A DNA stretch of 64,000 nt from Botryllus schlosseri. Taxonomy: Eukaryota. The notes under the pieces are model-generated. The model did not search any database. It was not told the origin of the DNA and saw only the letters and a list, made by a program, of their open reading frames with translations. The stretch is from contig CM119371.1 in assembly GCA_051294905.1 (NCBI GenBank), positions 870,001 through 934,000 of the forward strand. The letters are read 5' to 3'. This document shows, piece by piece, positions 7,421 to 19,585 of the stretch (its first letter is position 1; every line of letters starts with the position of its first letter). The position numbers and the translations under genes were made by a program.

Positions 7421-7834
7421 ACATCAGTGTTGTTCAAAAACAACTTTTTCGCCAAATTTCACTGTCTCATGAACAAAATGGTTAGGTTGGCTTGAAAAAA
7501 GGTTGCACGCTAGATTTGGCTCAATTCCAATATGCAGAAGTCAAGCTATCAGATTTTACAAAAAAAATTTAATTTATTGAAAAAATAAAATATTTTATGA
7601 AATTTTACTGGCTATTGGGCTCGAAAGTCACGTGACTTGTGGTTCGCTGGGGCCAAACCACTATCTTAGATAGGCGCTGCCCGTGTTAATGTCCGATATT
7701 GGTCTGTTTTCAATTCGTATTTTCTGTCTTTGTAAGGTTGTTTGTAGTACAGTTGGAGGTTTTATGGAATCAGCGAGTTTCAGGGTTTTTAGATGGTTAC
7801 TAGAATATTTTATGTTATTTTACAGTCGCTCAAA

Positions 7835-9318
7835 ATGCCACAGTGTTGCGTGCCACAATGTCGTAATAGAAGAGAAACCAATCCAGAGTTGTCTTTCTAT
7901 CGACTTCCGAAATGCAAGAAAGCCATGGGAAAGTGGCTGAAATTGATAAGGAAAGGAGTGGATGATGAATTGTATTTAAATTATTAAAGGCTCTGCTTTT
8001 TTATGCCAAGACCGTGTAATCAATGGCAATTATTTTGAGATGAACCACTTTAATTAGATTTTTGTAATGTATTTTAGGAGAGAGAAAGAGTTCACGCCAA
8101 CGACAAATACAAGAATATGCAGCTGGCATTTTCCAATGGGCAAGGTGGCAGGACCTACTAGATTTGAGTGGAACGAAGGCAAGAGAATAGACTGCAGTAG
8201 CCCTGAGAAAAGAATGAGGATATCCACCCCCCCCCCCAAAAAAAACATTCAGATTTGTTGACCACAAATAGTGAATGTGCTACATGTACAGGGATACATG
8301 CAGAAAATGATGATGTGGAAGAAATGAAAAAACAAATAGCTATTTTCAGGAAACGTGTGTTAGCTCTTGAGAAAGAAAAAGATGAATTACGTTCAGATAA
8401 TATAAAGTTAAAACAGGCCAATCACAAGCAATTCATCGACAGTTTTAAAGATAGTGCAGAGAAGATAGCTATGTATACTTCGTTACCGGACAAAAAAACT
8501 TTCGACATAGTTGTTGCAATGATACAGCGGTTTACGGTTAAGTATCATTCCAACTGGAATGTTAAAATCCTCTCAATCGAAGACCAAGTGTTGCTAACTC
8601 TGATGAAATTAAGACTCAACTTGCCAAATCTAGATTTGGCTGTTCGCTTCAATGTTAGTACAGGCACTGTTACCAATGTTTTTCTAAGTTTGATTGAGGT
8701 CATGCATGCCATTTTCCACACAGGTATGATGGTCAAAAAGTTTCCGTCATTGCTCAAATGCCAGATGAGTGCTCCAGAGTGTTTCCGTAGTTTTCCTAAC
8801 TGCAGAGTAATTTTAGATTGTACTGAAGTACGAACAGCCAAACAAGATGATCTTGGCAAAAATTGTCAAACGTTTAGCCACTACAAAAAGGTAACACACT
8901 GAAAGCATTAGTTGGAGTCGCACCTAATGGAACGATTACGTTTGTGTCAGAACTTTATGCAGGCTCCACGTCAGATAAGGCCATTACAAAAGATTGTGGA
9001 ATCCTTGACTTATTGAAACCTGGGGACTTAATTTTAGCTGACAAGGGGTTTGCAATTCACAGCATACTTCCTCCAGGAGTTACTGTGAACCATCCATCAT
9101 TTTTAAGCAATCCTCAATTCACTCCTCAGGAAGTATCAGCCAACAAAGAGTTATCGCGAGCCCGTATTCATGTTGAAAGGGCGATACAGCGAATTAAAGT
9201 TTTTCGTATCTTGGAGTTCATTCCACACCATTATCGACACCTATCCAGCAAGATATTTCAGTGTGCTTCATGCTTGGCAAATCTGCAGACCCCAATCATC
9301 CAAAATGCTTATAAATAG
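7835..9318 (+). CDS. Transposase: THAP zinc finger, coiled coil, HTH_Tnp_4-like and DDE_Tnp_4-like domains (exons ~7835-7950, 8078-9318; two frameshifts at homopolymer runs)
   Basis: MPQCCVPQC...WLKLIR|R...RICSWHF (THAP C2CH); [27 protein letters not shown] (HTH); catalytic motifs [24 protein letters not shown]. Frameshifts at the C/A run ~8227-8245 and the A run ~8885-8889. Confidence 0.92.
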
Positions 9319-17730: not shown

Positions 17731-19585
17731 CTGAAAGGAAATACATTGTATCACTTACACGGTAATGTCAGTGTCAGTGTTACTGTTGCTAAATGTCTAT
17801 TCCTAACGAACTACCGTCTCTCTATACGTTACCCATGCTATGCGGAAGGTTTATTGGCAATTTTATCAGTTCAGTCTAATCCTAACGAACTACCGTCTCT
17901 ATATACGTTACCCTCCATTTGTAAGTAAATAAATCCTTCTTGCAGCTTGCACTTTCGTTACACGAACACCAGATTTGATGAGAAACTCCGAGCAGTGGCA
18001 CAAATTGCGAATTGGAAACGCGTTCAGAGAATACCAAACCAAGCGCTTGGCCCCAAACGGCAGTTGTTATGAAAAAATGTCACGTGACTTTCGAGCCCAA
18101 TAGAAAATAGAATCGCGGCAGACATGGCTCAGGTGGAGTGCAAATAACTTATTTTTTAGATCGAAAAAGGGGGTTCTCGAATCCCGACAAATGACCTGAA
18201 ATTTCAATAAAATTTGACTTCAGATGATTGCCCCCATTTTACAGCCGGTATTTTCCCAATTTTTGCGCGCGAGGGGATAATATTGCCCATCTGCCATCTC
18301 AAGAATTACTGGTCGTACAGTCATGATATTTAGCTCAAAAGCTGTCAAAACATCATGTGTCTATCAGTCTTACGAAGAAAGTTTTCTCTATTGTCCAGTG
18401 GACAGCAATTTTTTCTAAATAACTTACGTGTCAAGTATATTTGTTGATGGTGCATAACCAAAACATACAGGTATCGACACTAAGTTTGAATGCAGATAAG
18501 ACCGAGATGCTCGTTTTAAATAATGCCAGTCATAATTTCACTGTGAACATCAATCATAAACAAATCTCAATATGTGACTCAGCAAAATATCTCGGCGTCT
18601 CCATTGATTCCAAATTGTCTTGGAAGCAGCATATTGAATGCACAATATCAAAACTAGCTCGGTGTGGGGGAATAATGACCCGTCTCCAATCTTTGGTTTC
18701 CAGATCAGTACTACGAACAATCTACTTCTCTCTTTTCCACTCGCATCTGCAATATGGAATCGTAGTATGGGGAAATGCATGTACAACATTTTTGTGCAGA
18801 ATTTGAACCCTGCAAAACCGTGCGATACGGCTGATCTCATCTGTACCTTTACGTACCAATTTATCGCCTTACTACCGTAAGCATCGAATTTTGCGAGTTG
18901 GTGAACTGTATCGCTTCGAAGTATCAAAAGTTGTTCACAAATATTTTTCCAATAGTCTCCCTCCTGTGTTTGATGACTTTTTCATACCTGCTAAACATGT
19001 CCATTCCCATTACACGAGATCTTCGTCTAAAGGAAACGTCTACTTACCCCAACCCAATAGCAACCTAACTAAGGCTGCGTTCATCGTTCGGTTTCGCCAC
19101 GAGTCATGGTGAAAACCCGGTACCAAAACCAGCAATGTGAACGCAAGCGAACTTCGCAACGTGACGGTGAACGCATTGGTTTCGACATCGACGTCACAAT
19201 TGACGGCTTAATGAACGCACTGGTTTTGAGGAGAAAATTTTGACGCCGTTTGGTGTGACGCTTCCCCGTTCATATCAAAGTATTGGAAGGATGAACTCTA
19301 TGAATGCAGGAAAGTACCAATATGGTATAGCGCAGTTGTGCGAACCTGATGAGTGCTCTGCTCACGTCTGTTTGTTGATCAATAGGCCTGTATGGATGTT
19401 AGCGTAAGGAACCTCTTCTCGATTGCTTCGAAGCAATGAATCATAACGTAATGTACTTGCAGTATTTATGATTGATCAAAGCTTATAGCAACCGCAGTAG
19501 CCCCTCTGAGGAATATTTCAACAAGGTAGATACAAGCCTGATATGTTGTTGTTTCATTAGGCTATAAGCTTAAGTCTATTTTCAG

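Follow-up and report, generated by a model that had tools for sequence, protein, structure and literature searches.

How a DNA transposon of Botryllus schlosseri came to carry the 3' ends of two histone genes between its own two genes, and whether it makes any use of them, is the question raised by a stretch of 64,000 nucleotides (nt) of contig CM119371.1 (assembly GCA_051294905.1, forward strand, positions 870,001 to 934,000), referred to here as the window. The initial annotation placed at 7616-18099 a transposon with two convergent genes, a transposase (plus strand) and a SWIM-YqaJ nuclease (minus strand), each followed by a captured histone 3' end, and proposed that histone mRNA processing had been co-opted to time the expression of both genes to S phase or early embryos. 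The transposon stands: it is a decayed, non-autonomous element of the ISL2EU type, with terminal repeats, AT flanks and protein domains that agree with the description, and the coordinates first given are right apart from small corrections. Of the interpretation, the capture of host DNA also stands, but the co-option for timing is not supported, though it is not refuted either. The best reading, to which we give a probability of about 0.6, is that host DNA was passively captured into a short spacer and has decayed since.

The two genes converge on a gap of 764 nt between their stop codons, of which 741 nt (9340-10080) are contiguous, tail-to-tail histone DNA, in keeping with the ~740-bp block first described as filling the gap; all other remnants total 23 nt. 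In order, this block holds H4 codons 27-102, a duplicated stem-loop, a spacer and the tail of H1 with a stem-loop of its own:

9319-9339, no strand: 21-nt remnant of the original spacer, with AATAAA on the minus strand at 9328-9323
9340-9571, plus strand: captured H4 fragment (residues 27-102 and stop), its edge set by loose ends at 9340
9604-9619, plus strand: histone stem-loop 1 (SL1), Rfam Histone3 28.2 bits, below the gathering score of 34
9630-9645, plus strand: histone stem-loop 2 (SL2), Rfam Histone3 37.9 bits, the only one above the gathering score of 34; the downstream flank follows
9646-9893, no strand: histone inter-gene spacer, with AATAAA on the plus strand at 9745-9750
9894-9909, minus strand: histone H1 stem-loop, Rfam Histone3 24.0 bits, with a U-G pair and an AUCCA flank
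9946-10080, minus strand: captured C-terminal tail of H1, with an in-frame TAA and then its own stop

Positions 9341-9568 encode H4 residues 27-102, and 71 of these 76 residues match the H4 chains in the PDB, the exceptions being G41D, V70I, E74Q, R77K and M84L. The homology begins at 9340, after the 21 nt that follow the transposase stop; the initial annotation had placed the first H4 codon 22 nt beyond that stop. The opposite tail (10080-9946), probably H1 and named from its Lys/Ala-rich composition, has its edge at 10080, 2 nt from the YqaJ stop (10085-10083) as had been reported. The five changes in H4 and the in-frame TAA in H1 bear out the earlier view that the histone codons are decaying.

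The origin of the block is resolved by sequencing data. Part of the stretch is contained in 20 rows from nine studies, none of them listed as RNA, and four runs were compared with window positions 7000-11500 at 80% likeness: two of DNA type (X1, a metagenome from another study, and X2, organism-A DNA), one of probable RNA (X5) and one of raw single-cell RNA (X23, of which ~3% was read). The assignment of X5 to RNA is a guess, resting on its uneven depth and on a paralogue contig without the THAP intron. Run depths are not copy numbers, and estimates of copy number from them were dropped, because summed depths do not behave alike in X1 and X2. Real H4 sequences part from the window at precisely 9340 (nine X1 contigs, continuing into upstream H4 codons), real H1 sequences leave it at 10080 (37 X23 reads and one X1 contig, with more Lys/Ala codons beyond), and H4 and H1 3' ends in tail-to-tail arrangement, separated by 267 unlike letters, also occur outside the transposon on an X1 contig of depth 105. 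In X2 the depth of the block is 2,335-29,311, against ~100-400 for the transposon body (10-100 times), and that of the spacer (~2335-8666) is ~10 times that of the body. Because its edges coincide with the points at which real H4 and H1 diverge, because the same layout is found outside the element, and given the X2 depth, the block is one contiguous piece of the host histone repeat.

The join between this piece and the transposon is real on the H1 side, where the early concern over an assembly chimera is answered by contigs from two other data sets. X1 contig 4 (1119 nt) spans 9520-10476, across the H1/YqaJ junction, and X5 contig 18 spans 10476-10051, stopping 30 nt into H1 at the point where 31-letter words become common to the real H1 genes; the junction is not an assembly artefact. 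X1 and X5 share it, possibly as alleles of one locus, and differ from the window by an indel at 10476 and at 11115. At 9690 and 9699 both agree with the window whereas the high-depth X2 contigs differ, so that a separate, transposon-borne version of the spacer exists in other samples. Among the contigs listed none bridges the transposase/H4 junction (9318-9340), and a protein search with the ORF (open reading frame) that spans this junction, weak and swamped by H4, gave no second junction-bearing ORF, the best 120 of 8000 matches covering the H4 half only (49%). Two other arrangements were considered and rejected: insertion of the transposon into a histone cluster, as the histone DNA abuts the ORF stops and the ends of the element are 1.7 and 8 kb away, and two elements flanking a histone unit, in view of the same abutment and of the single inverted-repeat pair that closes the element.

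RNA reads on the block derive from the real histone genes. At 9384, 9482, 10020, 10045 and 10062 the X23 reads carry the real-gene letter in 37 of 37, 80 of 80, 45 of 45, 67 of 67 and 46 of 46 cases, and the canonical letters at the first two positions restore G41 and E74, indicating that it is the transposon copy that is drifting. On the 4.5-kb stretch compared, 1381 of 2431 X23 reads are 95-99% alike to the window, and in the ~3% of the run that was read the transposon body is almost silent (depth 0-1.6), with no transposon-specific RNA ends seen.

The element in which the block lies extends over 10.5 kb, with the following features:

7614-7615, no strand: left AT flank, a target-site duplication of ISL2EU type (as described in PMC4482050)
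7616-7636, plus strand: left terminal inverted repeat (TIR), 21 nt, perfect arm
7835-7957, plus strand: transposase exon 1, the first half of the THAP zinc finger (Pfam THAP; tblastn match to residues 1-40 of protein P0012)
7958-8084, plus strand: intron of ~106-133 nt, with several frame-keeping GT-AG choices
8085-9318, plus strand: rest of the transposase (HTH_Tnp_4 and DDE_Tnp_4, from Pfam), with the stop TAG at 9316-9318
10083-10475, minus strand: C-terminal half of the YqaJ nuclease domain, stop at 10085-10083 (tblastn, relatives' residues ~235-352)
10476-10477, minus strand: deletion point, with ~117 codons (the N-terminal half of YqaJ) gone and relatives' residues ~117-234 unmatched
10523-10927, minus strand: SWIM zinc-finger part (Pfam SWIM and tblastn)
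10944-11500, no strand: nested tRNA-like repeats of short interspersed element (SINE) type, with loose ends at 10944, 10994-10999 and 11117
17551-17730, minus strand: putative first exon of the SWIM-YqaJ gene, tentatively placed by a single tblastn match (P0129 residues 1-59, E 1e-4)
18079-18099, minus strand: right TIR, 21 nt, then AT at 18100-18101

PMC4482050 and PMC9179366 describe the ISL2EU group of PHIS (PIF/Harbinger-ISL2EU-Spy) by the duplication of AT at the target site, a transposase of THAP-HTH-DDE type and a second gene with a YqaJ exonuclease domain, and these are all found here, together with GG-type TIRs starting from (T)GGG. The arms at 7616-7636 and 18079-18099 are perfect over 21 nt (TGGGCTCG..., the GG coming after one T); with the AT flanks the perfect core is 25 bp (7612-7636 and 18079-18103), and the inverted-repeat search gives wider arms of 35 nt at 89% (7602-7636 and 18079-18113). 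AT lies on both outer sides and, being palindromic, could equally be two more letters of the inverted repeat. The two genes converge likewise in 41 of 80 related metagenome loci. The element differs from its group in a spacer that is almost wholly histone fragment, in the damage to both genes and in its length, ~4.8 kb being the average, the excess owing to nested repeats.

Pfam identifies THAP (E 1.2e-07), HTH_Tnp_4 (E 1.5e-16) and DDE_Tnp_4 (E 3.3e-33) on the plus strand across 7793-9318, and among the transposases of the protein collection the nearest has 79% identity. The C-terminus is natural, ending within a few residues of those of nine aligned relatives. Frames and tblastn matches place two frame changes in the gene, one near the C11A8 run at 8226-8244 and one near AAAAAGG at 8885-8891; both are at homopolymer runs and could be sequencing errors. 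The THAP intron is absent from an X5 contig of a 15%-diverged paralogue, which skips 7953-8095. On the minus strand, 10948-10083 matches SWIM with 20.4 bits (cut-off 19.6) and YqaJ with 21.9 bits, just under the cut-off of 22 because only the C-terminal half of the domain remains. Relatives with E ≤ 0.001 that carry PF09588 number 126, the closest YqaJ partner in the protein collection being 47% identical, and the frame runs 11 codons beyond the last aligned residue (8-11 in relatives), again a natural C-terminus. At 10476 the unlike letters number 199 and 421 in the X1 contigs and 173 in an X5 contig, and the YqaJ deletion is at least 421 nt long. Nested repeats of ~6.6 kb separate the putative exon 1 (17730-17551) from the remaining gene. 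With two frame changes in the transposase, the N-terminal half of YqaJ deleted and ~6.6 kb of nested repeats, this copy is dead; that both of its genes are broken had gone unmentioned in the initial annotation.

The histone block is not a family trait. Among 80 related metagenome loci (330,390 nt, some of them near-duplicates) none has a histone stem-loop or H4, although in 63 the sequence extends 350 nt or more beyond the transposase stop. The genes are convergent in 41 of these loci, YqaJ lies upstream in four and 35 show no YqaJ gene. The convergent spacers measure 15-4,430 nt (median 794), and Pfam matched none of 111 spacer ORFs of at least 55 residues, which came from 25 of the 28 spacers scanned; the 13 left out were eight of at most 314 nt and five near-duplicates.

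The histone stem-loop pattern has three matches in the 64 kb and none in 100 shuffles, and they share with the metazoan histone mRNA 3' end (Rfam RF00032, Histone3) a 6-bp stem, a 4-nt loop, conserved flanks and a common downstream motif. At the Rfam gathering score the window yields no U7 small nuclear RNA, the partner with which a histone downstream element pairs. To have called them perfect was a slight overstatement, for although all three match the pattern, two fall below the Rfam gathering score and only SL2 passes, while the H1 stem-loop has its U-G pair. SL1 and SL2 are one 26-nt tandem duplication. Across 9598-9649 the H4 stem-loop and its flanks stand as 26 nt twice over; the match of the depth-105 X1 contig ends at 9627, with the second copy unmatched, and possibly the captured copy alone has the duplication. 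Unlike a histone stem-loop close behind the stop of an intron-less gene, these follow dead histone codons and lie 285, 311 and 173 nt behind the stops of non-histone ORFs, one of which, the transposase, has an intron; such distances are longer than in histone genes, as the initial annotation had cautioned. Its statement that no AATAAA precedes the stem-loops also holds, there being no sense-strand A[AT]TAAA between either stop and its stem-loop; the ordinary poly(A) signals are AATAAA at 9328-9323 (minus) and at 10125 (plus) beyond the block, and at 9745 (plus) inside it. Two arguments once offered for use of these signals lose their force. Stem-loops left intact beside decaying codons had seemed suggestive, but the probability that all 48 bases survive by chance at 2-4% divergence is 0.14-0.38. 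The convergent orientation of the block, matching that of the transposon genes, carries no weight because a tail-to-tail histone fragment, inserted in either direction, gives each gene a sense 3' end, and this cautions against reading design into the layout.

Passive capture would have run as follows. A low-copy ISL2EU-type transposon would have acquired, at the DNA level, a contiguous 741-bp piece of the histone repeat, in which the final two thirds of H4 and the end of H1, each with its stem-loop, flank the inter-gene spacer. The most likely route is faulty repair of a double-strand break or gap, in which foreign 'filler' DNA was copied in. Filler DNA left by end joining or by abortive gap repair occurs in the internal rearrangements of the P element and of Ac/Ds, and the present locus resembles them in that the element is collinear except at an internal breakpoint, where the foreign DNA sits. 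The AATAAA signals just outside the block fit insertion into a tiny original spacer. The block would then have been carried as a passenger, its stem-loops probably owing their intactness to a recent capture and to small targets rather than to use. The copy in the window has decayed since then and is not autonomous.

Several observations weigh against so passive a history. The block sits exactly between the stops, with both natural C-termini untouched, and a random hit would seldom fit so well unless the element had to remain functional afterwards. The catalytic motifs LDCTE, ADKGF and HVER are present in the transposase, as are SPDG and EVKCP in YqaJ. A less damaged version, with the same H1 junction but without the YqaJ deletion, exists in X1 and X5, and a 30-letter consensus of the loose ends at the deletion point, read by hand, keeps the YqaJ frame. 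The first ~140 bp of the element are common to a high-copy repeat (X2 depth ~4,000), which implies past activity of this lineage or of one close to it. A motif is shared downstream of the H4 and H1 stem-loops, in 33-nt arms that are 88% alike, and to judge from these letters a full processing signal may be present on both sides. On the side of passive capture, an X5 contig (9627-9919) that has the transposon letters at 9690 and 9699 and crosses both SL2 and the H1 stem-loop has a depth of 6.1, against 5.8-5.9 on the YqaJ gene, a comparison that counts only if X5 is RNA, as we guess.

Some use of the histone signals, summed over every variant, is unlikely. In the version that fares best, itself rather unlikely, the U7/SLBP machinery would cut the captured signals in intact copies of the element, giving mRNAs without poly(A) that accumulate in S phase or oocytes and are then destroyed. 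Heterologous genes given a histone 3' end do undergo processing, and the complete-looking signal on both sides, the lack of a sense-strand poly(A) hexamer before either stem-loop, the placing of the block exactly between intact ORF ends and the less damaged copy with the same junction in other samples would all suit such a scheme. The match in orientation, however, follows from the convergence of the block, histone genes have shorter stop-to-stem-loop distances than the 173-311 nt here, and the transposase gene has an intron, introns being held in older histone work to favour polyadenylation over histone-type processing. None of the 80 relatives carries the signal, and nothing points to spread since the capture. 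The copy in the window is broken, the X23 reads have the real-gene letter at all five block positions, and the transposon-specific X5 contig runs across SL2 and the H1 stem-loop with undiminished depth, where cleavage was proposed. The fullest form of the proposal is a little less likely again: in undamaged copies the H4/H1 module would act as a two-way, U7/SLBP-dependent 3'-end former, tying both mRNAs to S phase or maternal storage while keeping the converging transcripts apart.

That last task could also be performed without any cell-cycle timing, if the module, or simply 741 nt of spacer, served as an insulator or terminator separating 3' ends that formerly overlapped, with less read-through into the partner gene and less silencing-prone double-stranded RNA. 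The remnants outside the block come to only 23 nt, and each gene has its nearest ordinary AATAAA in or beside its partner (9328-9323 on the minus strand, 10125 on the plus), so the ancestral transcripts probably overlapped; relatives, moreover, mostly have long spacers (median 794 nt in the 41 convergent loci). Yet one relative has a spacer of just 15 nt, read-through seems to continue, to judge from the X5 contig that spans the spacer, and the same data fit passive capture equally. This role is improbable.

An assembly chimera, the histone block having been joined to the transposon by repeat mis-assembly, is very improbable indeed: the histone genes and the element are both repeated, no contig listed bridges the transposase/H4 junction, and the frame changes at homopolymer runs hint at some sequencing error in the assembly, but X1 contig 4 spans the H1/YqaJ junction, X5 contig 18 reaches into H1 and the transposon-borne spacer letters recur in X1 and X5.

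Passive capture thus remains the preferred reading, and what the locus offers is a neat case of gene-fragment capture rather than a demonstrated new timing of expression. DNA transposons that capture host gene fragments include Pack-MULEs, Helitrons and CACTA elements. As in such Pack-type captures, a piece of host genes (H4 and the H1 tail) lies between the ends of the element and would move along with it; what is different is that the captured piece is a pair of 3' ends, one placed in sense orientation after each of the transposon genes. The literature search found no transposon reported to have captured an H4 fragment or to carry a 3' end with a histone stem-loop, in agreement with the initial annotation, which knew of no such arrangement, and no report of host-gene capture in the ISL2EU group; the present case is apparently undescribed. 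The ISL2EU group can, then, acquire host DNA, and the spacer between its converging genes tolerates cargo. If the signals were used, a mobile element would have plugged itself into the one animal mRNA pathway tied to DNA replication, the first found to borrow the histone mRNA pathway, and would provide a ready-made test of histone 3' processing outside histone genes.

The surroundings of the element are themselves rich in repeats. A high-copy repeat (7000-7754, X2 depth ~4,000-7,800) extends over the left end of the element and includes a transposase remnant (7099-7338, 30% identical); an X1 contig links 7629-7766 to 7000-7596 via 325 other letters. This suggests that there is an abundant non-autonomous derivative with the 5' end of the element. 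The SINE-type repeat at 10944-11500, which lies nested within the 5' region of SWIM-YqaJ, reaches an X2 depth of 372,646 and is transcribed, 94 X23 reads having T-run loose ends at 11404/11408. Also inside the transposon, 13051-13733 is a near-perfect palindromic insert resembling a miniature inverted-repeat transposable element, with nested inverted repeats of 149 nt (97%), 143 nt (93%) and 35 nt. Farther off in the window, a large inverted structure (45645-54670) has arms of 636 nt that are 99% complementary and 7.7 kb apart, and an interior of 21-, 41-, 65- and 106-nt repeat arrays in mirror order; it resembles a foldback-type element or else a palindromic block of satellite DNA. The window also has a second, distant remnant of a DDE_Tnp_4-type transposase (49638-49963, minus strand), 33-37% identical to three relatives. 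To the right of the element, the open frames at 18423-19112 (plus strand), judged by eye, resemble the tail of a reverse transcriptase of long interspersed element (LINE) type.

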